Source of the DNA: Spizellomyces punctatus DAOM BR117 | Lineage: Eukaryota | Reading direction: 5' to 3' (one strand) | Assembly: GCA_000182565.2 (NCBI GenBank) | Contig: KQ257452.1 | DNA: 52,774 nucleotides | Part shown: positions 10,164 through 52,774 of the stretch, piece after piece | How positions within the stretch are numbered: position 1 is the first letter of the stretch | How the letters are laid out: each line of letters begins with the position of its first letter | The notes under the pieces: model-generated | The model's database searches: none | Seen by the model: only the letters and a program-made list of their open reading frames with translations | What the model was told of the DNA's origin: nothing | Program-made: the position numbers and the translations under genes

Positions 10164-11317
10164 TTAGTGCTGAGCCTTCTTGGTTCCAATCTTCGGGCAC
10201 AACATTGCAGCAGGACACTCTGCACAACCTGGTTTCTGGGCGCGACACAATGTTTGCCCGAACCCGACTAGCAGAGGATTGATTGGGCCCCAGTACTCTT
10301 TTGGAAGCCACCGCTCAAGACTTTGTCTGGTGGCTTCCGGGTTCTTCGTCCGGACCCAACCTAGACGATTACTGATGCGGTGAACATGCGTGTCGACGGC
10401 AATTGCAACATCTCTGATCATAGATTGTCAAACTACCGAAGCAGGTCGCGAAATCAGTTGTATGCTGGTTACTCACTTGTTCCATGCTATCGACATGGTC
10501 AATGCGGCCTAAATAGTGCGGAGAATATCAGAATTATGCACAACTGGAAGCAATCCACTGTAAGCTCCTACTATTTTAGGGCCAACCCCAGGAAGGGCGA
10601 GTAGCTCTTCCCAGGTAGGAGGGATATCGCCGTCATATCGCTCGTGCAAAACTCTACTCGTTGCCAGCAGAGATCTGGATCATAAAGGTTTCAGCCAAAT
10701 TGCACGGCCATACACGAAACTACGGCGACACAAAACTTACTTTGTTTTCTGGTTTTGCATTCCGATTGTCGCCAGACAGCTTTTAATCAGTTCAGGATCC
10801 ATCGCTAATAGGGCATTCGGGGTCATGCCTTCAGGTGTGTGGGATTGGAGCAGTCTCATGGTGGGAGCCAGTTTCAAGTCGGGTGTTTGAGCCGAGAGAA
10901 TAAGCGATACAAGTGTCTCAAAACGATACACCTGAATCAAATGCGTTCAGCAAGCAAAGCAACTGTTTGGAAAGGACGACAGCGTATATGATTTACCTTG
11001 TCACCAAATTCTTTTCTGCCGAGGACGGCACACCCGCAGGTATCTACAGGTGCCTCCACCCGCTTCCTATACGCTTCAATGCTAGTCCACACATCTTGCC
11101 ATTCGCCTTTATCGGACCTTGACGCCTCCTCTTTGATTTCTGCCTTTACCGTTTCCAGAGCAATCTCTTGGAGATCGTAGCGAATCGGAACATGCTTAAC
11201 CGCGGGTCGCTTCTTTGTCGGGCGCACCTTTGTTTGCTTTCCAAATACGGTAGCGATGGGACAAACTGTCTCCACGACAGGAGCCGCTGATCGGGGACGG
11301 AGTCCCGGTCGTGGCAT
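10164..11317 (-). CDS. NTH1: Endonuclease III / NTH1 DNA glycosylase
   Basis: [15 protein letters not shown], HhH motif [22 protein letters not shown] and the 4Fe-4S motif C-x6-C-x2-C-x5-C. Confidence 0.95.
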
Positions 11318-11418
11318 ATGTGGTTTTGAACTGTGAGATATGGGTTATCATCTCCTCCCAACTTGGATTTTACATGTCGAGGGGCTTAGCCGAACCCATG
11401 GGGCGTAGCAAATTCATA

Positions 11419-11446
11419 GTGCGGAGCCGATGGGAACTGGCACTAG
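11419..11446 (+). repeat. Left terminal inverted repeat
   Basis: GTGCGGAGCCGATGGGAACTGGCACTAG versus the reverse complement of the right end, GTGCGGAGCCGATGGGTATTGGCACTAG. Confidence 0.95.
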
Positions 11447-11522
11447 TACATAGATTCCAACCGATTTAATCATAATTTTACTCGATTTAGACTCATGAAC
11501 TATGGTTTGATCCAAAAAATCC

Positions 11523-11530
11523 TATATAAG
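11523..11530 (+). promoter_or_regulatory. Candidate TATA box for the Fanzor mRNA
   Basis: TATATAAG about 55 bp upstream of the ATG at 11580, inside the element. Confidence 0.35.
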
Positions 11531-11579
11531 TTGTCGTGCCCATTTTCCCAGGCTTTCATCTTTTCCCACAGATATCATC

Positions 11580-13476
11580 ATGCCGCCAAAAAAGAAGCAA
11601 AAACTCGAAAAACTCGACAAACCCACCTTACATACCTGCAACAAGACTTCCTTTGCAAAAGCCCTGCCAAACGAGATCTATCGCCAACGGCTTCTAGATT
11701 ACATCGCCATCATCCATCAACTTGCCGACCATGCTTCCCACGCGCTGAAATTCTATCTCCTTTCATCATCAGCGCCAGTTTTTCCCACGGTAAATGAAGA
11801 TACAATCGAAGCCATCCTGTATCTTCTCAACAAGGGGGAGGCTTGGCATCCAAGAAAGGAAGCAAAGAAGGCATGGCGGGATTGTTTGCTGCCATATGTT
11901 CAACGGTACTGCCAAATCGTCGGCTTCATTCACCCAAATCTACGAGGCGAGCAGCAGTCAATCAATTACCTGACAGCGAGTATGATGATGAACCTGAAAG
12001 TCAACGTTCAAGAGCATTTCATGACGATGCTGCTCCGATATATCAATCTGCAGCTTGACGTGAAGGGACAGAAGCAGCAACTGCCACCGAAAAGTGATGC
12101 GTGGAAAAGTGATGCGTGGAAAGCTTTCTTTGCTCGTCTTCGTTACTTGAAGTCAATTTTCCTTTTTGATGTGGTGCCCGAGTTGCTGGATCTGAGCAGG
12201 ACAGAATCCGATATCATGGACGAAATTTGGTCGCTCGATCTGCCTTTTCTTGTCAACGATCCACTGGCATATGCTGTTGCCGTTGACCCGATGTCCTTTT
12301 TCCCTGCATACTGTCGGTTGTCAAGCCTATATGAAAAGCATGGATTTCGACGGTTCAGCGCCATCCCACTTCGCCACTCCCTCATCCAAACACATATTCA
12401 CATCGACACGGTCATTCTGTACCAGCATATCCTTTGCATCATGCGACGGGAAGCGGAAACTGTTGAAAAGTTCGATTTATGGTTGCGCGTGTGCAACCTG
12501 CGGAGCAAGGCTTTTCGGTCTCGCCGCGGTATGCAGTTTGAAGGCTCGATCAGTACGGATGGAACCTCGGTGTCGGTATACCTAAAGCACCCAGAAGCAG
12601 AGTATGGAAAGCGCGGAGCGAGAAAGTCAGCAAAGAGTTTAGAGGATGAAGTTAAAGCGCAATACATGGAGAAAAACTTACCTGCTTGTCGAGCAGCAGA
12701 GAATGTCGTTGTTATCGACCCAAACAAGCGTGATCTACTCTACTGCCAAGACAGCAATGGTGCGACAATGTTTCACTACACCGCCAACCAGCAAGCCATG
12801 GAGACTGGAAGCCGTCGACAGCAAAGTGCAACGGCAGCAGATGAAGAAAGAAGCTGGAGTTGACCTCATAGAATCACGTATCCCTAGCCACAAAACAATG
12901 AACCTCATGGACTTTACTCGCTACCTTCTTGTTCGCCGTGCTGATTGGGATCGTCACAAGGAGTTCTACTCACATCCTGCCCACACGCGGTGGAAGTGGC
13001 ATGCATTTATAAACCATCAGAAGAGCGAATCAGACCTCATAAGCGCCATGCACAACAAATACGGTGAAAACTTTACCGTTGTGATGGGTGATTGGAGCGA
13101 TGCCGGTCGAACTGCAAGATTTCAGACCTCATCAAAGACGAAAGGTTGGCGCACCCTCTTTAAGCACAACAGGATCACCTGCTTCCTTCTCGACGAGTAT
13201 AAAACCTCATCTGTCTGCCCTCACTGTTCCTCTGGCGTTGAAAAAGGCTTCAAAACACGACCTCATTCAAGACCTTGGTGCCGTCGCGAAGGCAAGATTG
13301 AAAAAGTCCACGGATTGCTGGGTTGTACCAACCCTAACTGTCAGCAAGCCTGGACGATGCGCTACTGGAATCGAGATACGCTGAGCACCTGCAATATGCT
13401 AATGATTGTGAGATCAATGTTGGATGGGCACTGTAGACCAGAGGTGTTCAGCAGAAGCGTTCCAGCTATAGCGTAG
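11580..13476 (+). pseudogene. Fanzor1 RNA-guided endonuclease (SpuFz1-like), split by one frameshift at ~12819
   Basis: N-terminal NLS MPPKKKQK, TDGTSVS, RuvC-I VVVIDPNKRD, GDWS, RuvC-II LLDEYKTS, Zn ribbon CPHC...CTNPNC and RuvC-III WNRD. ORFs 11580-12863 and 12646-13476 join at GSRR/SKVQRQQMK. No introns. Confidence 0.93.
12090..12119 (+). repeat. In-frame 15-bp tandem duplication in Fanzor (KSDAW x2)
   Basis: AAAAGTGATGCGTGG is repeated exactly twice. Confidence 0.95.
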
Positions 13477-13494
13477 CGTAGATTAGTTAGTTAG

Positions 13495-13585
13495 CTTTTC
13501 CGAACCGGTTGTCGCCGGTTCAATCCCTGGTGCGGGTGCTAGTGCCAATACCCATCGGCTCCGCACTATGAATGTCGCAAGCAAA
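13495..13585 (+). ncRNA. Putative Fanzor omegaRNA (scaffold ~13495-13568, guide from 13569)
   Basis: Structured GC-rich stretch between the Fanzor stop and the right end, overlapping the TIR. It matches the established TnpB/Fanzor right-end RNA arrangement and closely resembles the SpuFz1 scaffold as I recall it. Exact ends are uncertain. Confidence 0.82.
13539..13566 (-). repeat. Right terminal inverted repeat
   Basis: CTAGTGCCAATACCCATCGGCTCCGCAC followed by TA. Confidence 0.95.
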
Positions 13586-14038
13586 ACAAACCCAATGCGC
13601 AACGATTGGTAAGACGGGTATTTGCCATCTATGCCCTTGTTCACCATTTCTTGCAAACGTACGCTGGTGCACAGTTTATTATCATGGAGATCCCGGAGTT
13701 TGCTGTCCGAATGCAGGAAATCAGCAAACTCTTCGTGGTGAAATTCTACGCAATGGAGTAACAAAGTGCCAAGCGAAACTGCAAGCGGCTATCGCCCTCC
13801 CACGCCTTTGTGGTTGATTCCAAGCGTTACGATCAAAGAAAGCACGCGATGGAAAGCAAAGTAAAAAAATCTATTTGACAATTTCTGGTCGCCTACCTTT
13901 TAGCACGTTGAGGCGTTTTAAAGAAAAATGATTTTTTACTATTGGCCCCACGGGTGAACGAGCGATAGACGAGCAACAGTCCAATTGCTGAAAAACAAGT
14001 TGCTGCTCATGTTCGCTGCCCACTAGAGATCTCATGCC

Positions 14039-15306: not shown

Positions 15307-15640
15307 CGTACACCGATAACTTTCGGACGATACTGCTTAGATTTTGTAGATAATTTAAATACTATGATATATAGAAATTCATATAGTAATAATTTACTCC
15401 CTAGGGCTAGCGTAAATCCAGTGCTGGGTGAGCTGTTTATTTCAATAATCGAACGAGCTTCCAGTCCCCAAGCCATCAACCAATCAGAGAACGGTGGCAC
15501 AGCAGATTTAGCAAAGCGCCTGCAAACTACAGCGCAGTCAGCGAACAACAATCCTTTAAACAAGGATTTCACACACGGCTCCGTTTTCACAAATTTCATA
15601 CCCTCTGCGAGAAGCACATAGCCAAATAACGGCTTGAAAC

Positions 15641-18600
15641 ATGGCGGACGACCTGGACGCCCAAATCAGGGCCGCTCAGGCAGCTCGCAAAAAGGAGAAG
15701 ACGGCAGACAAGGCATCATTGGTTGGAGATGTTAGTTACGATCAGGATTTGTACGGCGGCCGAGGGGTGGAAAGGTTTGAAGGTTACACCACATCCATTC
15801 CAGTGAACGACGAAGACGAGGAAGACGATATGTTTGCAAAGAAAGCCAAAAAGTTGTCCTCTTACACTGCACCAAAACAAGTTTTCGAGGAGATGGCCAG
15901 TATGGAAGATGATGTGGACCCTATGGAGAATTTTCGACCTTCCCGCCGCATTGCGGACAGAGAGTCAGAGTATCACGCTCGTCGGTTGAATCGTCAGCTA
16001 TCTCCGGAGCGAATTGATGCATTTTCCGGACAGCCAGCCAATTCAGAAGCTAGGTCTTACGCTGAGGTCATGAGAGAGGCAGAATTGGACCGCGAGCAAG
16101 CTCAGTTGCAACGGAAGATACAGGAGAAGAAAAAGGAAGAAGAAGAAAATATGAAAGAGTTGGCGTCGTCCGGGGAACTTCAAATTCGGGCACAAGCTCA
16201 AGCTGCTGCCATGGTGGAGAAAGCAAAGGCTGCAGCCGCGGCGGCCGCAGCCAGCGCGGATGGTCCAAAAAAACGGAGATGGGATCAGAATGGAGAGGGG
16301 AAGACGTCGGAATGGGAAGAAGATGAAAAAAGTACAGGCGGGAAGAGCCGATGGGATGAAACTCCAAAAGAAGAAGTACCCGCCCGAAAGCGGAATAGAT
16401 GGGATGAAACACCGGTCGACGCATCCGCATCTGCCTGGGACGCTACGCCTAAAAAGCAAAGTGGAGCCGCAACACCCGGTGGGAAACGTTCACGTTGGGA
16501 CGAAACGCCTGTCGGCATTACCAATCAGTTCGCCGCAACTCCAGTCGGAAACATGGGTCTTATGACTCCCACACCGGGACAGATCCCTGTTCCTATGACA
16601 CCAGAAGCTGTTAACGCCATGCGATGGGAGAAGGAAATCGACTACCGGAATCGATATCTTACTGATGAAGAACTGGATGCAATGTTTCCCACTGAAGGTT
16701 ATAAAATTCTCGAACCTCCGGCTACGTATGTTCCTATACGCACTCCAGCACGAAAGCTCATGGCCACTCCCACTCCTATGGCGGGGCAAGCCGGGGGATT
16801 CATGATGCAGGAGGAGGATAGAAATCAAATGTACGATGTACCACCGGAAATTCCAGGTGTCGGCGGTTTGCAGTTCTTCAAGCCGGAGGATATGCAGCAC
16901 TTTGGCAAGCTTCTGGATCAGAAGGACGAAGCCGAGTTGAGCGTGGATGAGCTTAAGGAGCGTAAAATTATGAGACTGCTTCTAAAAATCAAAAACGGGA
17001 CTCCGCCTATGCGTAAAACCGCTCTCCGTCAGATCACCGATAAAGCCAGAGAATTCGGCGCCGGCCCACTCTTCAACCAGATTTTACCCTTGCTCATGTC
17101 TCCCACTCTAGAAGATCAGGAACGTCACCTGTTGGTTAAAGTCATCGACCGTGTCTTGTACAAGCTGGACGATCTTGTTCGTCCGTATGTACACAAAATT
17201 CTAGTCGTCATTGAACCACTCTTGATTGATGAAGATTACTATGCCCGAGTTGAAGGTCGTGAAATCATCAGCAATCTCAGTAAAGCCGCGGGATTGGCGA
17301 CGATGATTGCCACCATGCGTCCTGATATTGACCATGTCGATGAATATGTACGTAATACCACTGCTCGTGCCTTCTCGGTGGTTGCATCAGCGCTCGGCAT
17401 CCCCTCCCTCCTGCCATTCCTAAAGGCTGTGTGCCGATCAAAGAAGTCTTGGCAGGCCAGACACACTGGTATTAAGATTGTGCAGCAGATTGCCATCCTT
17501 CTGGGTTGCGCAGTTTTACCTCATCTGAAGAGTTTGGTTGAAGCGATTGCCCATGGGTTAGAGGATGAACAGCAGAAAGTGCGGACAATCACGGCATTGG
17601 CCATTGCTGCTCTTGCGGAAGCGGCTGCACCTTACGGTATTGAATCTTTCGATATTGTGCTGCGTCCTTTGTGGGCGGGTATCAAGAAGCATCGAGGAAA
17701 GGGTCTAGCAGCCTTCCTGAAAGCGATCGGCTATATTATTCCGCTTATGGACGCCGAATACGCCAACTACTACACTAAGGAGGTCATGATCATCTTGATT
17801 CGTGAGTTCCAGTCACCGGACGAAGAAATGAAGAAGATTGTGCTCAAGGTGGTGAAGCAATGTTCTGCGACCGACGGTGTCGAACCCCAGTATATCAAGA
17901 CGGAAATTCTTCCCGAGTTCTTCAAGCACTTTTGGGTACGACGAATGGCTCTTGATCGCCGTAACTATAAGCAATTGGTGGAGACGACAGTCGAACTTGC
18001 CCAGAAGGTCGGCGTAGCTGAAATAGCAAGCAAGATCGTTGAAGATCTGAAGGACGAATCAGAACCCTACCGGAAGATGGTTATGGAGACCATTGACAAA
18101 GTAGTTAGCCAGCTGGGCACTGCCGACATTGATCACAGGCTCGAGGTGACCTTGATTGACGGTGTTCTATATGCATTCCAAGAGCAGACTGTGGAGGACG
18201 TAGTCATGCTTAACGGCTTCGGTACAGTTGTCAACTCGCTAGGTCTTCGTGTCAAGCCGTACTTGCAGCAGATCTGTTCTACTATCCTTTGGCGCTTGAA
18301 TAACAAGAGCGCAAAAGTTCGTCAGCAAGCAGCGGACCTAATCTCACGAATCGCTGTGGTGATGAAGACTTGCGGTGAGGAGAAACTCATGGGTCAATTA
18401 GGTGTTGTGCTGTACGAATACCTTGGCGAGGAATATCCCGAAGTGCTCGGGTCCATCTTACGCGCGCTAAAATCGATCGTAAACGTCATTGGTATGAGCA
18501 ACATGACTCCCCCGATCAAGGACTTGCTACCAAGGTTGACACCAATCTTGAAGAATCGACACGAAAAAGTCCAGGAAAACTGTATCGATCTTGTGGGACG

Positions 18601-19393
18601 TATCGCCGACCGTGGTGCAGAGTTTGTTTCTGCTCGAGAATGGATGCGTATCTGTTTTGAGTTGCTCGACATGCTCAAGGCCCACAAGAAGGGTATACGC
18701 CGTGCCACTGTGAATACTTTTGGGTACATTGCGAAAGCTATTGGTCCACAGGATGTACTAGCGACACTCCTCAACAACTTGAAGGTGCAAGAGCGTCAGA
18801 ATCGTGTCTGTACGACTGTTGCCATTGCGATTGTCGCCGAGACTTGCTCTCCCTTTACTGTGCTACCCGCACTTATGAACGAGTACCGTGTACCCGAACT
18901 CAACGTGCAAAATGGTGTGCTCAAATCACTTTCCTTCTTGTTTGAATACATTGGGGAGATGGGCAAAGACTACATCTACGCCGTCACACCTCTCCTCGAA
19001 GACGCTCTCATGGATCGTGACTTGGTTCACCGTCAAACTGCTTGCACTACGGTCAAGCATATGTCGCTCGGAGTCTTCGGCCTTGGCTGTGAAGACGCTC
19101 TTTTACATCTTCTAAACCATGTCTGGCCCAATATCTTCGAAACGTCCCCTCACGTCATCAATGCAGTTATGGAAGCTATTGACGGACTACGAGTTGCATT
19201 GGGACCAAGTGTTATTATGCAATACGTATTACAAGGATTATTCCACCCTGCAAGACGAGTACGGGAGATCTACTGGAAGATTTACAACAATCTTTATATT
19301 GGCAGTCAGGATGGGCTGGTGGCATTTTATCCGCGAATCGAAAATGATCAGAGGAATATTTACGAACGATATGAGCTGGACCTGGTGATCTGA
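15641..19393 (+). CDS. SF3B1: Splicing factor 3B subunit 1 (intronless)
   Basis: 1250-aa ORF with RWDETP/ULM repeats and HEAT repeats ([33 protein letters not shown]). Confidence 0.99.
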
Positions 19394-28954: not shown

Positions 28955-29693
28955 AACAAGAATTGACGAACACACATTTATTTCCCAACTGTCGTTTGTG
29001 ATCTGCTGCAATCAAACAATAGCATTTGCGGTCCAAAGCCACCATTAGGATTTTGTCTACGAACCGGCCCTATTCCCAGGCCGAGAACCTGGCATGGGCA
29101 GTGGACGCGGTACGTGAACTCAACATGGAATGGCACTTACACTCCTCCTTGAGACAGCCCACGGATGAACATTTTGTAGTAGGACGGGTCGAAAGTGGAT
29201 GATTTCAGGGATGAGCTGGACGTTGTGGACGAGATAGCTCGGGGGAGCCAGTCCGTCGGTTTTTCCAACGTGGGGAGATAGATACATTCATCGGGCGAAG
29301 CGAGTTCGATTTAGGTAGACAGTTGAGATGCCATGAATTTGGTTGGGATCAACTTCTCATGGGACAAGAGTCCCAGCATGAGGGAGACCTGGTATCGCCG
29401 GGTACAAGCGTTAGTTCCGTAGGTAGCTGTGTATAAACTGTGGTTGTGACGACTGGGAACACCCGCCGAAACCTAATGTGGCGATCGTGTTGTCGATGCC
29501 TTTGGATGTACAGTACGCTTGAGGCGGCCATTTCATTGGAAGCTACCAACGCGTTGTATGCGCGGTTTTCGCCCTTTTTGGTGATGACTCAATTTTGGCC
29601 ACGACGATACGGTGCTGGAGCCCATGTCCTCGCGGAGTAGACGGTCGTCCATTTTTCACTGGAATTCCAAAGCGAAGTACTAAAGAAAAGAGA

Positions 29694-31745
29694 ATGTTGC
29701 GGAACGTTGGCCGTCCAGGGACGTCCCGTTTCTTGTTCCCAATGCGAACGATTCCCGAAGCCTTAGAGCCTTCCCTAAGGCGATGTGCTTCACAACGACG
29801 GCAACCAACAGTGTACCTCCATATACCACACGTACGTTCGCACACCAGTACTTCGACTGCACTCTCAAACTCTCAGAACTGCTGGTCGGACCGGTTTCAC
29901 ACAGTTGCTGGTGATAGACGGACACATCGGTGTGGTGATATCCGTTTGTCCGATGTGGGCAAGGAGGTTGTGTTGTGCGGATGGGCGCTTTCACCCAGAA
30001 AGATTGGGTCGGATATTGCCTTTCTGCCCATCCGTGATGCATCTGGCGTGGCACAATTGGTGCATGAGATGCCGGGTGCAATCTCACAAGCAGATACGAC
30101 TTTACGGGAATTGCTCTTGTCTCTGTCGCCAGAAACAATAGTATGCGCTACTGGGCTGGTACGCAAACGACCGGTGGATGCGGTCAATTCTGATCAATCC
30201 ACTGGGGAGGTGGAGGTACTCTTGAGGTCCTTCCAAGTTTTGAATCCAGCAGACCCACTTCCATTTTCTACCTCTGCACGCGCAAAGCCTCCCACTGAGG
30301 AAACTAGGCTAAGATATCGGTATGTCGACCTGCGTAGGCCAGCTTTACAGGAGAATATTCGAAAGCGGTCCAAAGCAGCGCACGTGGTTCGGAATTTTCT
30401 CCACAATCAAGGGTTTGTCGAAGTGGAAACTCCATATCTATTCAAAAGCACACCAGAAGGAGCTCGGGAGTTTCTCGTCCCGACCAGAAATAAAGGACAA
30501 TTCTATGCACTTCCTCAAAGTCCACAACAGTACAAACAAGTGCTTATGTCCGGTGCAGTAGACAAATACTATCAGATCGCTCGATGCTTTCGTGATGAAG
30601 CGTTGGGGGCAGATCGACAGCCAGAATTCACACAAATCGATTTGGAGATGTCCTTTGTATCTATGGAGGATATCATGGAGTTAATGGAAGGGTTGGTCTC
30701 CGAGTTGTGGGCAAAGGTGGCGAATCATAAAGTTACCATACCTTTGCAAAAGATGTCATACGAGGAGGCTATGAAGAAGTATGGATCCGATAAACCAGAT
30801 ACTAGGTATGATATGGAGATTCTCGACTTGACGCCTCTATTGGGGAATGTAGAACAGGGGATGATGGTCGAAGCGTTCAATGTGAAAGACGGTGCACGCA
30901 TGATCAGTAACAAGCAAGCGGATCGCCTAAAGGACGCGATTCAGAAAGAGAAATTCCCCCTTCTTGGGGGCACTATTGATCCCCGCGATTTGTCCTTCGT
31001 TCGTATATCGGAAACAGGTGAAAAGGACTGGCTTATGCGGTCCAAGATTGTCGGCAGTACACCACCTGATGCGTTGACCAACATCAATCAGTCCTTGGGT
31101 GTGCAACCTGGGGATCTCATCGTGGTGAATCGACGGAGGGCCGGATATCTTGGCCCTCACACCATTGTTGGGCGGGCCCGTGTGCATGTTGCTAAAACGC
31201 TGGTTTCGTTAGGAAAGTTGGAGCTAGCTGGAAAGCTCAACTTTCTCTGGGTTCATTCTTTTCCGTTGTTTTCTCCCTCCGAAACCCTTTCTACTCCGTC
31301 TGGACGTACGGCCTACGAGTCTACTCATCATCCCTTCACTGCACCCATGTCATCTGATCTCCATCTGCTGCAGAATGATGTAGCCGCGGTGCGTGGCCAA
31401 CATTATGATCTTGTTCTCAATGGGCAAGAAATCGGCGGCGGTTCCATTCGTGTTCATGACCCTCGCCTCCAGTATTATATCTTTTCTGAAGTTCTTCGCA
31501 TTCCTCCTTCCAAAATTGCACAAGATTTTGGGCATTTACTGGATGCTTTACGTTACGGGTGTCCGCCGCACGGCGGGATTGCGCTTGGGTTTGACAGGTT
31601 AATGGCGATTGTGTGTGACGCACCCAGTATCAGAGACGTAATCGCATTCCCAAAACTGTCCGGAGGAGATTTGTTTGTGGACAGCCCTTCATCAGTGGCC
31701 GCTGATTCTCTAAAGGAATATCATTTGAAGGTTCTGGATGGCTAA
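29694..31745 (+). CDS. MSD1: Mitochondrial aspartyl-tRNA synthetase (intronless)
   Basis: Bacterial-type AspRS motifs RTHRCG, STPEGAREF, LPQSPQQYKQ, RCFRDE and PPHGGIALGFDRL. Arg/Ser-rich presequence from the ATG at 29694. Confidence 0.96.
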   Translation: MLRNVGRPGTSRFLFPMRTIPEALEPSLRRCASQRRQPTVYLHIPHVRSHTSTSTALSNSQNCWSDRFHTVAGDRRTHRCGDIRLSDVGKEVVLCGWALSPRKIGSDIAFLPIRDASGVAQLVHEMPGAISQADTTLRELLLSLSPETIVCATGLVRKRPVDAVNSDQSTGEVEVLLRSFQVLNPADPLPFSTSARAKPPTEETRLRYRYVDLRRPALQENIRKRSKAAHVVRNFLHNQGFVEVETPYLFKSTPEGAREFLVPTRNKGQFYALPQSPQQYKQVLMSGAVDKYYQIARCFRDEALGADRQPEFTQIDLEMSFVSMEDIMELMEGLVSELWAKVANHKVTIPLQKMSYEEAMKKYGSDKPDTRYDMEILDLTPLLGNVEQGMMVEAFNVKDGARMISNKQADRLKDAIQKEKFPLLGGTIDPRDLSFVRISETGEKDWLMRSKIVGSTPPDALTNINQSLGVQPGDLIVVNRRRAGYLGPHTIVGRARVHVAKTLVSLGKLELAGKLNFLWVHSFPLFSPSETLSTPSGRTAYESTHHPFTAPMSSDLHLLQNDVAAVRGQHYDLVLNGQEIGGGSIRVHDPRLQYYIFSEVLRIPPSKIAQDFGHLLDALRYGCPPHGGIALGFDRLMAIVCDAPSIRDVIAFPKLSGGDLFVDSPSSVAADSLKEYHLKVLDG

Positions 31746-46576: not shown

Positions 46577-47149
46577 TCACCTCCTACTATGGAACTCACA
46601 TTCTGAGCTGGGGAATTGGTCAAAATTAACCAGTATTGGAATTGTGCCCCTGGTCAAAAAATAAGTGATAAGTGATAATTATTCAAAATTTTCATCATTA
46701 TAATATGGAGCCACCTGAACCCATTATATGCACCCAGTATTTGATTTTGCAAATCTCCTCCTTTTTAGTATCTGGAAGGCTATCAACCTACAGTTGGCCA
46801 ACCATTTTTTCCAAGCAAAGCAAAATTAATAGTGTACAATAAGAGCTTAATTACTCTTTTGGCTAGCTGAAATAAATACTAGAAAATTATCCTTCATCAG
46901 GTATATTTGGAAAATTTGCATAATAGGGATACTGTGGAAAGAATTTATCTGGAATACTCCTTTACTCTAGAAATATTATATAATATACAGTAGTAATACA
47001 TAGAAAGGAGCTTGGAACTTTCTTAGCTATAAAACTTTGGGACTAACAGATACATTGTAACAGGCTAGCAGGGACAAGAAGACAACAGAAAACTAGGGAA
47101 GACTTGGTTACTACTTGTTATTCTTTTGAGGGGTCTCAGAGAGGTCCTC

Positions 47150-47157
47150 TTTTTATA
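47150..47157 (-). promoter_or_regulatory. LTR TATA box
   Basis: TATAAAAA on the minus strand, downstream of the U3 repeats. Confidence 0.55.
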
Positions 47158-47191
47158 GACAAAGGGGCTGACAAATGCTATATCCTAACTA

Positions 47192-47342
47192 CCCAATCAG
47201 ATCTCACCCACATCATCCTAAACTATTTGTCAGCCTATTGCACCATTTGCAACCAATCAGATCTTGTACATGTCATCCTAAACTATTTGTCAGCCTATTG
47301 CACCATTTATAGCCAGTCACAAGTGAGACAAGTCATCCTAAA
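47192..47342. repeat. 60-bp tandem repeat (~2.5 copies) in LTR U3
   Basis: TCATCCTAAACTATTTGTCAGCCTATTGCACCATTT and CCAATCAGATCT recur at a 60-bp period. Confidence 0.9.
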
Positions 47343-47543
47343 TACACTGTGCCACTTGATTGAAAGGGGCAGATGCCAGTGTGTCAGGATACTCATCTAA
47401 TTTAGCCAGAAATGGCTAAATCTGCTTATTTATCTAATTCTGGTCAAATGAATGCTGACACCATCAGCAAAGTCATGTGACCACTAGTTTGGAACCACAT
47501 CTAACCAGTATAACCATAGCACTGACAGAAGAATTCTGTCACA

Positions 47544-47555
47544 CTCCCCCACTTT
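47544..47555 (-). other. Polypurine tract
   Basis: Minus-strand AAAGTGGGGGAG lies between the pol stop and the LTR TG. Confidence 0.85.
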
Positions 47556-47559
47556 AAGA

Positions 47560-50500
47560 TTAAGCTCCCTTCTGGGCTAGGAACTCCTTCAAGATTTCTC
47601 TGCCATGGGGTAGGAGGTTTTCTTCTGGTTCCCAGGTGTTCTGAGAGGAGGGATAGCCTTTCCACTTGATGAGGTAGAGATTCTTCTTCCTTCTGATCTT
47701 GTGGTCAAGAATCTTCTCAACTTCCCAAAACTCTTCTCCTTGCTGGATAATTGGCTCAGGCTCAGGGGGCACTGGTCTGGTAGGGAAGTCCTCTGTGGGG
47801 TCCAAGTAAGGCTTGAGGAGTCTCACATGGAACACTGGATGAATCTTCATGGTGCTGGGGAGCTCCAGGGTGTAATTCTGAAATTCATCCTTGGCCTTGA
47901 TTCTGTAAGGTCCAAGCCAGGGGGGAAGAAGTTTCTGGGCTGGCCTCTGGGCTTCTTCTTCTGGGGTGATACCTTCTCTAGATAGCCAAACTTTGGAGCC
48001 TAGGGGGTAGCTTGGGGCCTTGCTGAGAGACTTGTTGGCTTGCTGAACTTGTCTTTCTTGGGCCAGTATCATGTTATCCTTGGCTACTTGAAGCAGTTGC
48101 TGAATATACTGGTGGAAGTCTGTTGCTTCAAGATCATTGCTTTCTCCTGGTGGTGTTGCTGGGGTCCTGGGATGCTGGCCATTCTCCAAGTAGAATGGGG
48201 TAAAGCCTGTGGTTTCTGAGATACTGTTGTTGTAGGCAAACTCAGCAAAGGGGAGAAGATCTTCCCAATTCTTCATGTTGTACTGCAGGAAAGCTCTGAG
48301 GTAAATCTTCAAAGTCTTGATGGTTCTCTCTGCCTGTCCATTGGTCTGCTGGTGCCTTGCAGTGGCTAGGAGGGTGCTGCAGCCTAAGAGTTGCATCAAG
48401 TTGGACCAGAATGAACTGGTGAACTTGGTGTCTCTGTCTGATACAATCACTTCTGGGAGTCCATGGTGCTTGAAGATGTGCTTCAAGAAGAGCAGGGCCA
48501 GGTCCTTGGCTGAGGCTCTGGTGGTGGTAGGGATGAAGTGGCCTCTCTTTGACAATCTGTCAACAATGACAAAGATGGCATTGTGATCAGAGGAAGTCAT
48601 AGGTAGGTCAGGGATCAGGTCAATGGAGATCTGGCTCCATCTGGTCTTAGGTACTGGGAGGGGCTGCAGCAAGCCTGCTGGTGGTTGCTGACTAGGTTTG
48701 CTTCTCTGGCAGGAATCACAAGACTTGACATACTTCTTAATGTCCTTGTACATCCTTGGCCAGTAGTAATGCCTTGCTAGGGCATCATGGGTCTTGGTGA
48801 TGTCAAAGTGTCCAGCATATTGAGTGTCATGGGTTTCTTGGAGTAGGCTCAACCTTAGGTCTGGGTCACTAGGAACAAAGATCCTGCCCTGGAAATAGAG
48901 TAACCCATCTTGATGGCTGAGGTATTTGAGCCTTTGTTGCTGGTCTTCTGGTCTCCTGGGGTCATCCAAAGCTTGGATGAGCTCTTGAAGTTCTGCGTCT
49001 TCTGTGGTACTGGTCTTCAATCTCTCTTGAAGGGTGCTGGTGGTGTGGGTCACAGCATTCAACTCTGCTGTCACCAAGGCCTTGCACTTGATGCATCTTG
49101 GGGCCAGGTCTGGTCTTCTAGACAGGATGTCTGCCACTGTGTGGAGTCTTCCTGGGCCATAACCAATCTCAAAGTCAAAAGATTGGAAGTTCATGACCCA
49201 TCTGGCTTGTCTTCTGGTCAAGAAGGGCTGGTTCTGTAGCCACTTGAGGGACTGGTGGTCTGAGATAACTTTGAAGGGGGTTCCTTCCAGGTAGGGCCTC
49301 CAAACTCTGAGGGCATCATGGATGGCTAACAGCTCTTGTTCTCTGGTGTCATATCTGGTCTCTGCTGGGGCCATCTTCCTGGAGTGGTAGGCAACTGGTC
49401 TCATGCCTTTCCCATCATCCTGTCCAAGCCATGCACCAACTGCATAGCCTGAGGCATCAGGGAAGACAGTGGTAGGCAAGGCTGGGTCAAAGGGTCTGAG
49501 TACAGGGGCTTTGGTGACCATATGCTTCAGCTGCTGAAAAGCTTTCTCCTGAGGTTCAGACCAGGTCCAGGGCTTGTCATTTCTCAACAGGTCTGTCAAT
49601 GGTGCAGCTTGCTCTGCCAGGTCCTTCAGAAAGCTATGGAAGTAGTTCACCAGGCCCATGAACTGTCTGACTTCAGTGACACTCTGAGGGGTGGGCCATT
49701 CTTGAACAGTCTGCACTTTCTTGGGATCAAGCTTGACTCCTTCATGTGAGACTACATGGCCAAGAAACTCTACTTCTTGCTTGAAGAACTGGCACTTGCT
49801 GGGGTTGGCATACAGCTTGTTCTGCCTGAGGGCTTGCAGAACCTGCTTGAGGTGGTCCAGGTGATCTTCTGGGGTCTTGGAGTAGATGAGGATGTCATCT
49901 AGGTAGACAATAACAAAGATGTCCAAGAAGGGTCTAAGGACATCATTCATCAAAGTCATGAAAGTGGCTGGGGCATTGGTCATTCCAAAGGACATGACCA
50001 GGAACTCAAAGTGACCATATCTGGTTCTGAAGGCTGTCTTGGGGATGTCTTCTGGGTGGACTCTGATCTGGTAATAGCCTGACTTCAGATCTAGCTTGGT
50101 AAACACCTGGGCTCCATTCAGCCTATCCATCAGCTCATCAATCCTAGGGAGGGGATATCTGTTCTTGATGGTGATTTTATTCAGAGCCCTGTAGTCCACA
50201 CACATCCTCAAAGAACCTTCTTTCTTCTTGACAAAGAGGATAGGTGCTCCAAATGGGCTCTTGGATGGTCTGATGTGGCCTGCCTCCAGAAGCTCTGAAA
50301 GCTGCTTCCTCAGTTCTTCTAACTCCAAAGAAGAGAGGTGGTAGGTTGGTCTCCAGGGGGTCTGGTTGGGGTCACTGAGTTCAATTCTGTGATCTACTGA
50401 TCTCTCAGGGGGAAGTCCTGGGGGAAGCTCTTCAGCAAAGACATCTTGATAGTTTTCAAGAAGCTTGGTGACTTTGGAATCCATGGTGTCTGGAGGGGTG

Positions 50501-50745
50501 CTGGTATCTTGAGGGTTCTTGAGATACACAGCAAAAGCTGTTGCTGTCCTCTTCTTCAGTGTTCTGGCCAACATCTTTGCTGATACCATGGTGATAAGAT
50601 TGGACTTCTGGGATTTGTTGGAAGAGCTGGCCTGCTTAACAAACCATCTGACTCTGGGGTGCTGGGAGGTGGTGAAGGTCACAGTGTTCTTGTTGTAGTT
50701 GATACTGGGATTCCTCCAGGCAAACCAAGGTATACCCAGGATCAA
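47560..50745 (-). CDS. pol: Pol: RT, RNase H, integrase, GPY/F, chromodomain
   Basis: [27 protein letters not shown] (HDTQYAGH...CDSC), SDRD and [22 protein letters not shown]...YLIKWKGY...TWEPEENL. Confidence 0.97.
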
Positions 50746-51466
50746 GTCAAACTTGATTGGGGCTAGTCTACCAACAAAAAATCCGTTACAGTTCCTACTG
50801 AGTATTGAACACCTTTGACAAAGCCTATTTCTTGGTGCTTTCTGTTATCAGCCATAGAGATTTCTGCTCCAGGGAGAGAATGAGTCACCAGTTGTGCCTT
50901 CTTGACAAATGACTGTGACACATAGAGCTGGTTTGCCCCATTGTCCAGGAGAATGGTTACTGGGATTCCCTGGATTGTACCTTGCACAGTCAGCAAGTGA
51001 CTCTGGGCAGTCCTTGGCCCTTTGGGGGTACTTAAACAGTATGGAGCCACCTCTACTACATGGATCTTGCTTTCTTTGTAGGTGACCTGGGGACTCTGGG
51101 TTTCATGGGGTTCTGGGGTTCTCTGGGGTTCTTGGGTTCTCTGGGGTTCTCTGGGGTTCTCTGGGGTTCTCTGGGGTTCTCTGGGGTTCTCTGGGGTTCT
51201 GGGGTCCTCTGGGGTTCTGGGGTCCTCTGGGGTTCTGGGGTTCTCTGGTGTTCTTGGGTTCTTTGGGGTTCTGGGGTTCTCTGGGGTTCCAGGTAAAGTC
51301 CATGGATAGTTAAAGTCTCAGGGGTGGTTTCAGGTGGGTCCAATAGGTCCAAGGGTTGAATAACAGGAGAGTGTACCAGGTGGTGGGTGTCAGGGTGGTG
51401 GTTCTTGATATCTTCCCCAGTAGAGGCAGAACCTCTATCTTCTACTGAGTCTGCTTGCCATTTCCC
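50746..51466 (-). pseudogene. Pol N-terminal linker and aspartic protease, interrupted by two frameshifts
   Basis: ILLDNGANQLYVS protease motif. Frame breaks occur in the repeat array (~51120-51200) and at ~50780. Confidence 0.8.
51107..51290. repeat. GGGGTTCT/GGGGTTCTCT minisatellite (18-bp and 10-bp units)
   Basis: Direct inspection. The 18-bp units encode TPEPQR on the minus strand. Confidence 0.95.
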
Positions 51467-52353
51467 TGCTGCTTGGTCTTCAAGGGACAGAGGGGGGCAA
51501 TATGGCCTGGTTTTCTGCACCTGAAACAGGCTCCCTTCTTTCTGAGCTCAGTCTTCTCAGCCTCAGTGAGTTTGGAGAGAGGCTTCCCAGAGTTGGTGGA
51601 TATACTATCTATCTCCATAGGGACTACTCCAGAGTTCTCAGTCTTGGGGGAGTAGTAGCTGGTGGCCTGGCTTCTTTTCTGGTAGCTGAACTGGATCTGG
51701 TCAATCCTATCAGCTGTTGCTGCAGCTGTGGCTAAGTTGATGGTACTGGTGGGGTTGAGCTCCAGTTGTTCCTGAACCCTGGGTTTAAGCCCTCTGATAA
51801 ACTTGTCTAACTTTTCAGCTTCTGACAAGTCATCCACCTGAAGGCATAAAGTATTGAACTGGTTCAGGTACTCCTTTACTGAGCCTTGTTGTTTGAGCCT
51901 GGCCAACTGGTCTCTTGCTGCTCTGGTGGCATTTGCTGGGAGGAACTTCTCTTGAAGGGCTCTCTTGAACTGGTCCCAAGACTGGATTCTGAGAGGGGAT
52001 CCTACTGGGTGGTTCTTGACATGGCTTTGCCACCAGACTTCAGCATGGAGTTCCAAGTAGGTGGTGGCTACTAACAGTTGGCCTTCTGGTGATAGATCTG
52101 CAGCTGCCTGGAAGTACTCTTCAAGTCTGAGGAGGTATGTCCTAATCTCTTGGACATTCCTGTTGCCTTTGTAGGGCTTCAACTTGCTTTGGAGGACTTT
52201 TACCAGGGATTTATCTACTCTGGGTTGGTACTGAGCAGTGGCTGGTGTGGTGGAGTTCAGCTGCTGGAGCTTTGCTTGATAAAGCTCCTGCCTGACCTGG
52301 TCTATGTCAAGCTCAGCAATGGTGTTGAAGAGAATCTCTTCCTGGCTGGTCAT
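51442..52353 (-). CDS. gag: Gag with CCHC zinc knuckle
   Basis: Retrotrans_gag pattern (AEVWW, SWDQFKRAL, LKQQGSVKEY, FIRGLK), VPMEID and CFRCRKPGHIAPLC. Confidence 0.95.
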   Translation of the reverse strand: MTSQEEILFNTIAELDIDQVRQELYQAKLQQLNSTTPATAQYQPRVDKSLVKVLQSKLKPYKGNRNVQEIRTYLLRLEEYFQAAADLSPEGQLLVATTYLELHAEVWWQSHVKNHPVGSPLRIQSWDQFKRALQEKFLPANATRAARDQLARLKQQGSVKEYLNQFNTLCLQVDDLSEAEKLDKFIRGLKPRVQEQLELNPTSTINLATAAATADRIDQIQFSYQKRSQATSYYSPKTENSGVVPMEIDSISTNSGKPLSKLTEAEKTELRKKGACFRCRKPGHIAPLCPLKTKQQGNGKQTQ

Positions 52354-52384
52354 GGTGGTAATGGGGTGGAGTCTTGGGTAGTTA

Positions 52385-52595
52385 CAATATTACTTGTAAC
52401 AACAACAATAGGGTGGGTCACAGGCCCAAGAGATGCAATGTTACTTGCAGTCAAGATAGGGTGGGTCACAGGCCCAAGAGATGCAATGTTACTTGCAGTC
52501 AAGATAGGGTGGGTCACAGGCCCAAGAGATGCAATGTTACTTGCAGTCAAAATAGGGTGGGTCACAGGCCCAAAATATGCAATATTACTTGCAAG
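52385..52595. repeat. 48-bp tandem repeat (~4.4 copies) in the retrotransposon 5' leader
   Basis: TAGGGTGGGTCACAGGCCCAA occurs at 52409, 52457, 52505 and 52553. Confidence 0.95.
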
Positions 52596-52774
52596 TACAA
52601 CTGGTGGGGAGGATACAGGGGGACTCTACAGCTTCTTCACAATCCCACAATAGAAAAGCTCTATCTGCTTTCTCAGAGCTTCTGATGCTAACCAAGTGGG
52701 GCAAGAGTCTGGGTGTGTCTGGTAGTAGTTCTGGAGGTTGTGCTGGGGGTAGGTTTGTGGTATGGGATGGTGTG

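Follow-up and report, generated by a model that had tools for sequence, protein, structure and literature searches.

A copy of the Fanzor1 transposon SPu-1 in Spizellomyces punctatus with a probable pseudogene and a putatively retained omegaRNA module

The DNA described here is a stretch of 52,774 bases from Spizellomyces punctatus DAOM BR117 (GenBank assembly GCA_000182565.2, contig KQ257452.1), which is called the window throughout. It contains, at positions 11417-13568, an element of 2,152 bp whose ends are set as Saito et al. define them. Very probably, this element is one copy of the known non-autonomous transposon SPu-1 (also written Spu-1), in which the gene of the RNA-guided nuclease Fanzor1 is frameshifted and the omegaRNA module is retained. 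Its features, from left to right, are the following.

11415-11418, + strand: CATA at the left junction, composed of a conserved CA and the terminal TA of the element; the same as the published target-adjacent motif (TAM) of the nuclease SpuFz1 (PMC10432273)
11417-11446, + strand: left 30-nt inverted repeat (IR), meaning TA plus 28 nt, with letters found in the window copy only at 11435 and 11437
11447-11579, + strand: 133-nt leader from the left IR to the ATG, presumably promoter and 5′ untranslated region
11580-12818, + strand: N-terminal 413 codons of Fanzor1 in frame 1, comprising WED, REC, and RuvC-I with the D and N of VIDPN
12089-12118, + strand: perfect 15-bp tandem duplication that keeps the frame and doubles KSDAW in the REC domain; SpuFz1 and three more intact paralogs do not have it
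12819-12840, + strand: frame-break interval of 22 nt, compared with 7 codons in the intact paralogs, a net change of +1 nt
12841-13476, + strand: C-terminal 211 codons of Fanzor1 and the stop in a second frame, comprising RuvC-II (E of DEYKTS), the C4 zinc ribbon, and RuvC-III (D of NRD)
13494-13568, + strand: predicted omegaRNA scaffold, which ends with the IR and, as defined in the literature, is 75 nt long; stem-loop 1 at about 13502-13521, stem 2 at about 13528-13568 with an 8-nt loop
13539-13568, + strand: right 30-nt IR with TA at its end, shared by two contigs of the run X6
13569-13583, + strand: predicted 15-nt guide TGAATGTCGCAAGCA in the DNA flanking the right IR, its length and position deduced from the account in PMC10432273

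The two 30-nt IRs match each other at 28 of 30 positions and have TA as their outermost dinucleotide. Counted without this TA, they are 28-nt terminal inverted repeats (TIRs; 11419-11446 and 13539-13566) with two mismatches and with TA immediately outside on both sides (11417-18 and 13567-68). CA lies upstream of the left IR at 11415-16, and CATA thus spans the left junction. A first-pass annotation, made from the letters of this DNA alone, had named 28-bp TIRs with a TA on either side and a CATA placed exactly against the left end, and both are found as it described them. A repeat search returned a longer inverted repeat with arms of 38 nt (11412-11449 and 13536-13573, 92% complementary) because the flanking DNA is itself palindromic. 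This flank palindrome reads ATTCA-TA on the left (11412-11418) and TA-TGAAT on the right (13567-13573); it is seen in a single copy and may be due to chance. When the element was compared with the window by word-7 blastn, the two IR ends matched with an E value of 2.4e-9. The 17-mer core of the repeat occurs exactly twice in the window, with 0.08 occurrences expected, and two or more matches were obtained in none of 100 shuffles. No second copy or protein-less ghost element was found in the 52.8-kb window with this 17-mer (3 mismatches allowed) or by word-7 blastn, which returned only the element's own two ends.

Fanzor was first discovered in SPu-1 (Bao & Jurka 2013, PMC3627910). SPu-1 is described there as an element of ~2,100 bp with one 633-aa open reading frame (ORF), 33-bp TIRs, and presumed target-site duplications (TSDs) with the sequence TA, present in 17 full-length copies, only nine of which have intact ORFs. 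For DAOM BR117, Saito et al. 2023 (PMC10432273) give 42 Fanzor loci, 19 of them full-length, and 134 protein-less ghost loci; their Spu-1 exhibits 30-nt IRs and CA upstream of the left one. The window copy has the size, the 30-nt IRs, and the CA of this family, whereby the published element was compared by its description and not by its consensus sequence. That the family is present in many copies is seen with the proteins as well as with the ends. A protein search returned 59 homologous clusters at E<=1e-5 among 4,741 candidates, and 24 of these clusters are labelled S. punctatus DAOM BR117. SPPG_07727, the best cluster, is 82% identical to the N-terminal piece by BLASTP, and it is the Fanzor of the structure 8GKH, with 100% identity over residues 2-638. 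The window's own 427-aa product is also among the clusters, and the same 1,895,877-nt contig carries the paralog SPPG_09012.

Reads and contigs, compared at 95% likeness, gave matches in the runs X1, X6, and X22, and none in the run X24; about 6% of the stranded RNA run X22 was read. Other copies share the right end in these contigs and reads and then diverge: the two X6 contigs with the right end enter different 255-nt flanks, one at 13569 and one at 13571. The leader is kept among copies, with many reads at a likeness of at least 95%. At this level, the reads of other full copies also agree with the right IR and with those parts of the left IR that are shared. At 11435 of the left IR, the other copies have T (165 of 165 depth in X6; 33 of 35 on the + strand and 5 of 5 on the − strand in X22), and T is also found in them at 11437.

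The gene starts with an ATG at 11580. Frame 1 stays open from there for 427 codons and stops at 12861-63, and a second frame, open from 12643 to 13476 and closed by TAG at 13474-76, carries the C-terminal part. Both pieces match the solved structure of SpuFz1 (8GKH), the N-terminal one with an E value of 1.8e-227 and 85% identity (345 of 407 aligned residues) and the C-terminal one with 7.6e-131 and 92% (196 of 214). The next-best match is the Fanzor1 of Parasitella, PpFz1 (9CF0), with E values of 2.6e-23 and 5.9e-22. A profile of 15 relatives matches the three solved Fanzor1 proteins (Spu, Pp, and Gt) and nothing else below an E value of 0.02; a direct sequence match to TnpB structures was not obtained, even with this profile. 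In the alignment with SpuFz1, the catalytic residues D383 and N385 (VIDPN), E541 (DEYKTS), and D606 (NRD) are kept, as are all four zinc-ribbon cysteines (548, 551, 586, and 591) and all six published TAM-reading residues (R96, Q129, Q130, N133, R291, and Y345). The motif given by Bao and Jurka, D-X(125,275)-[TS][TS]-X-X-C4 zinc finger-X(5,50)-RD, is present, with KTSSVCPHC and NRD being read, and it straddles the frame break. In addition, the N terminus contains the basic cluster PPKKKQKLEKL. The assignment rests on similarity to solved Fanzor1 proteins and not on family models, and this similarity to characterised proteins makes an overwhelming case for a Fanzor1 identity.

Herein, the first-pass annotation had been right about the split RuvC and the C4 zinc ribbon, about a basic cluster of the nuclear localization signal type, and about an intronless gene, and the search against Fanzor proteins returned the RuvC/Fanzor1 relationship that it had proposed (8GKH, with the E values given above). 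Its single reading frame did not hold, yet the same annotation had already spoken of a frame-corrected protein. The close resemblance to SpuFz1 that it described is there but was understated, as the window copy belongs to the same published multicopy family. What it termed a diverged paralog is, given the net +1 frameshift, most likely a pseudogene. By descent, the window copy is a member of Fanzor1, and its gene is probably no longer intact.

No single uninterrupted reading frame was found for the gene; two frames are needed. The break is bounded by the Arg codon 12816-18 and the Met codon 12841-43, and the alignment with the four intact paralogs (SpuFz1 and three others) is collinear around it, with no extra segment. 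Past the break, frame 1 continues for 14 out-of-frame codons up to its stop. The predicted product hence consists of 413 native and 14 out-of-frame residues; it keeps WED, REC, and RuvC-I and is without RuvC-II, RuvC-III, and the zinc ribbon, and therefore it would be unable to cut. Most likely, the gene of the window copy is a pseudogene that stands beside a still intact omegaRNA module. Besides the frame break, the copy bears three more signs of decay: the 15-bp duplication in REC, the private letters at 11435 and 11437 of the left IR, and an excess of arginine losses. The duplication is spanned by an X1 contig (11994-12332) with 0 differences, and an X6 contig with another organism label spans the same positions with 7 differences and 0 gaps; the duplication is real and no assembly slip.

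Changes private to the window copy were counted at the 469 columns where the four intact paralogs agree. There are 22 such changes, and 10 of them replace R by H, Q, W, or C. With each intact paralog in turn taken as the odd one, arginine losses make up 5 of 66 changes (Fisher p 2e-4). The arginine losses of the window copy include R268H, R407Q, R481H, and R531H, which concern contacts to the guide-target duplex in the published structure. At the arginine losses, the codons of the window copy are CAC, CAT, CAA, CAG, TGG, and TGC. Deamination of methylated CpG gives changes from CGN to CAN or TGN. In Spizellomyces, 5-methylcytosine (5mC) is confined to transposons, according to PMC12695648. Such an excess of arginine losses would be expected in a transposon copy that is silenced and marked with 5mC.

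The stop of the gene is followed by a non-coding tail of 92 nt (13477-13568). The fold of 13495-13584 shows two stems and a linker with −31.9 kcal/mol (z −2.43), and an equally good fold was obtained in 2 of 200 shuffles. A structured non-coding tail of ~90 nt that overlaps the right TIR had been noted beforehand, and it is recovered in this form. In the predicted scaffold, the 5′ stretch is unpaired and is followed by stem-loop 1, a linker, and the long stem 2, which the 8-nt loop closes. In the published account, the Spu-1 RNA is 88-90 nt long and comprises a 75-nt scaffold across the right IR and a variable guide of 14-15 nt; the canonical scaffold has two stems and a linker, and the 8-nt hairpin loop distinguishes the canonical from the ghost form (PMC10432273). 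The likeness was judged by comparing the predicted fold with this description and not with a published scaffold sequence; from it, we infer that the RNA module of the window copy is intact. The stretch GGTTCAATCC in stem-loop 1 was considered as a tRNA and was ruled out, as ARAGORN found no tRNA in the window. Covariation was discarded as support for stem-loop 1, the four-sequence alignment being poor (consensus −0.8 kcal/mol, two-sided changes in 4 of 6 pairs). The predicted guide occurs once in the window, directly after ACTA and not after CATA.

Transcripts of the family were seen in X22. The peak lies over 13487-13567, where 1,698 first mates fall on the + strand vs 48 on the − strand. Most of its reads come from other loci: 2,784 have a different sequence ahead of 13483-13491, and 586 depart from the window copy after 13520 or 13532. 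In the bin on the right side of the repeat, 13568-13648, the depth is only about 3. X22 shows expression of the scaffold region at the level of the family and nothing for the window locus.

In the scaffold region, the reads from other loci also differ from the window copy, with C for T at 13487 (617 of 1,926), T for C at 13521 (280 of 1,134), and T for A at 13523. The latter is found in 936 of 1,106 X22 reads, and therefore the linker A at 13523, between the stems, is a minority variant among the expressed copies. At the other end of the element, over 11462-11947, the first mates lie on the − strand (193 vs 49 and 75 vs 0.75, among others), and over 13406-13567 they lie on the + strand; therefore, the two ends of SPu-1 copies yield RNAs of opposite strands, one of them antisense to the gene.

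Several observations weigh against the reading of a SPu-1 copy with a broken gene and a retained omegaRNA module. Rfam gave no match at E<=1 on 11000-14000, and the local copy of Pfam gave nothing relevant at E<=1 for both ORF pieces, with two chance-level rows; PF26935.1 is carried, as a precomputed assignment, by the window product and all its close relatives in the protein database, and this model is evidently missing from the local copy. For 5,009 of the 5,073 X22 reads placed, the fit is partial; in the ~6% sampled, the depth is zero in the bins 11948-12109 and 12434-12676 of the ORF body. Depending on the library convention, the RNA peak may not be sense to the omegaRNA. The element as a whole has a CpG observed/expected ratio of 0.93 and thus shows no overall CpG loss; therefore, the arginine-loss signature is local, and a general CpG decay of the element is ruled out. 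The TA on both sides is seen in one copy, from which a duplication and a part of the IR are not separable. Furthermore, the frameshift is seen in the assembly alone: in the bin 12758-12838, the depth is 0.3 (X1), 0 (X6), and ~0.5 (X22). An assembly error at the break would make the copy intact.

The first-pass annotation proposed mobilisation in trans by an IS630-Tc1-mariner transposase. The element would then be a non-autonomous Tc1/mariner transposon (IS630 superfamily) with TA as its TSD, and a DDE transposase of the mariner type, encoded elsewhere in the genome, would move it. This origin is compatible with the reading as a frameshifted SPu-1 copy and is possible, if on balance doubtful. 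TA stands on either side of the 28-nt repeats, PMC3627910 speaks of putative TA TSDs for SPu-1 and of Fanzor1 genes of other species that sit in proven Mariner elements, and the palindromic flanks (ATTCA-TA...TA-TGAAT) are such as a symmetric transposase dimer might prefer. However, the element contains no transposase, and 10 other ORFs of the window, when scanned, were without a transposase domain save the Ty3 integrase. Saito et al. treat the TA as a part of the IR and found no transposase flanked by Spu-1 IRs (PMC10432273); chytrids including S. punctatus hold very few DNA transposons, according to PMC5751038.

Alternatively, the copy might be functional, meaning that an assembly or sequencing error mimics the frameshift and that the locus codes for an active Fanzor1 paralog of full length (~631 aa) and has an omegaRNA of its own. 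We regard this as unlikely. It would fit the hardly existing read depth at a break that is known from the assembly, the retention of all catalytic, zinc, and TAM residues, the two open halves with 85-92% identity to SpuFz1, and the 19 full-length genes among the 42 published loci (PMC10432273). Yet the break interval contains no long homopolymer, and the public gene call is the truncated product of 427 aa. Four of the arginines that contact nucleic acid are replaced, and arginine losses account for 10 of the 22 private changes; in the sampled 6% of X22, no RNA reads fall on the copy-specific ORF body. That the cell instead connects the two frames, through a programmed +1 frameshift or through a very small intron, is rejected as extremely improbable: only the open frames on either side of the break agree with it, whereas the four intact paralogs read the stretch collinearly in one frame with no extra segment, the interval has 22 nt for 7 aligned residues and is below intron size, and SPu-1 is described as a single-ORF element in PMC3627910 and PMC10432273.

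The frameshifted SPu-1 copy can be compared with systems that have been characterised. SpuFz1 (SPPG_07727; PDB 8GKH and 9CEU-9CEZ) comes from the same species and the same family, has the same catalytic, zinc, and TAM-reading residues, and is 85% / 92% identical to the two pieces. Its Spu-1 locus and the window copy are both ~2.1 kb long, with 30-nt IRs, CA+TA on the left, and, on the right, a scaffold that has two stems and an 8-nt loop. Unlike SpuFz1, the window copy exhibits the net +1 nt break, the 15-bp REC duplication, and the replacements R268H, R407Q, R481H, and R531H; in contrast to the SpuFz1 locus, its left IR carries two private changes, and the guide sequence is particular to this copy. 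With the prototype SPu-1/SPu-1-1p (PMC3627910), it has in common the ~2,100 bp, the single Fanzor gene of ~633 aa, the TIRs, and the TA on both sides. There is no difference in kind from this prototype, and broken copies are already described as a class in that paper. If the frameshift is real, the window copy, like the ghost Spu-1 (134 loci, ~550 nt; PMC10432273), could supply an omegaRNA without a nuclease and would depend on Fanzor protein made elsewhere. Unlike the ghosts, it has retained the gene body in full, and its stem 2, with the 8-nt loop, is of the canonical type.

Further likenesses exist to TnpB and the omegaRNA of IS200/IS605 elements such as ISDra2: a RuvC nuclease, a guide that is templated by the right end and its flank, a TAM that is the sequence to the left of the element, and an empty site that is the natural target (PMC10432273). 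Unlike ISDra2, the window element has no TnpA, double-stranded TIR ends in place of hairpin ends, and a eukaryotic host, and its Fanzor, compared with the TnpB, has a larger REC domain and carries a basic cluster at the N terminus. The combination of Fanzor1 and omegaRNA in a TIR element without a transposase, as proposed in the first-pass annotation, is supported by the structure matches, the IRs, and the fold. The annotation had also called the class of system already described, and SPu-1 was indeed described in 2013 and characterised biochemically and structurally in 2023; family, nuclease, guide RNA, TAM, structure, and broken as well as protein-less copies are all published.

Relatives were also sought outside the genome. 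In a metagenome scan, 80 pattern matches led to 29 loci, 7 of which were examined. One of them (L007, 1455-2045 of a metagenome contig) is a mini element of ~570 bp with repeats at 1469-1494 and 2010-2035. Its gene remnant comprises only the last ~150 Fanzor codons, with 52% identity, and its two-stem RNA region ends with GGCTACGCACTA; the termini are TAGGTGCGTAGCC on the left and GGCTACGCACTA on the right. At its left junction, AAATTCATA is followed by GGTGCGTAGCC, and the flank AAATTCATA equals the left flank of the window copy over 9 nt. The termini, CATA, and the preceding AAATT are common to both, and the right flank of L007, CTTCATT, is unrelated to that of the window. By these features, L007 appears to be a ghost-like element of an environmental relative. 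Four others among the 7 examined (L002, L003, L005, and L013) showed no convincing terminal inverted repeats; L003 has the same 3′ flank as L002. A scan of viral contigs found 0 relatives among 53 pattern matches, with a poor query alignment in which the misaligned C-terminal piece spoiled the patterns.

In the window, the element sits between genes, and the short ORFs that touch its flanks are without a family match. The neighbouring host genes are ordinary ones: about 2 kb downstream, a gene for the splicing factor SF3b1 is found at 15638-19393 (+ strand; E 2.3e-47, HEAT repeats), and at 29523-31745 (+ strand; E 2.8e-113) there is one for an aminoacyl-tRNA synthetase of class II (D/K/N group). 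The right end of the window, 46800-52774, is occupied on the − strand by a Ty3/Gypsy chromovirus with a gag ORF (51442-52389) and a pol ORF (47560-50844), both of which are open; pol has 1,094 aa with reverse transcriptase, RNase H, integrase, and chromodomain. This chromovirus is nearly free of CpG, with 2 CpG in 48001-52774 and an observed/expected ratio of 0.01 in pol (GpC 0.82). The ratio is 0.8-1.1 in the rest of the window and 0.93 in the SPu-1 copy 35 kb away. Such a loss of CpG with open frames suggests long-term 5mC pressure or an avoidance of CpG.

For SpuFz1, the CATA TAM, the cleavage pattern, and the cryo-EM structure are known: the complex of protein and omegaRNA cuts double-stranded DNA next to 5′-CATA at sites that match the guide, and any mutation of the TAM abolishes cleavage (PMC10432273). 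RNAs of ghost loci load onto Fanzor in the published assays (PMC10432273). The omegaRNA of the window copy, if transcribed, could likewise load onto the Fanzor protein of intact paralogs, and the loaded RNA would direct cleavage at CATA+TGAATGTCGCAAGCA. If TA is a TSD, the empty site would read TTCATA+TGAATGTCGCAAGCA at the junction, meaning a CATA TAM followed by the match to the guide. In the occupied site, the guide match is preceded by ACTA; since mutation of the TAM abolishes cleavage, this site would be immune and the empty site cleavable.

From this, a protein-dead, RNA-live intermediate between the full-length Spu-1 and the 134 ghosts can be proposed tentatively: the gene would be decaying under a 5mC-driven loss of CpG, while the omegaRNA would still be made, loaded by the Fanzor of intact paralogs, and used to police the copy's own empty site, CATA+TGAATGTCGCAAGCA. 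We consider this course of events rather less probable than not. As a positive control, the locus is of practical value, as a reader with the sequence only recognised the Fanzor system correctly. For the family, it illustrates the TnpB-like logic neatly, as the TAM lies on the left, the guide is taken from the DNA flanking the right end, and ACTA would protect the occupied site; it is also a possible snapshot of a full element decaying toward a ghost. If the proposed intermediate is true, the guide repertoire of the family outlives its genes.

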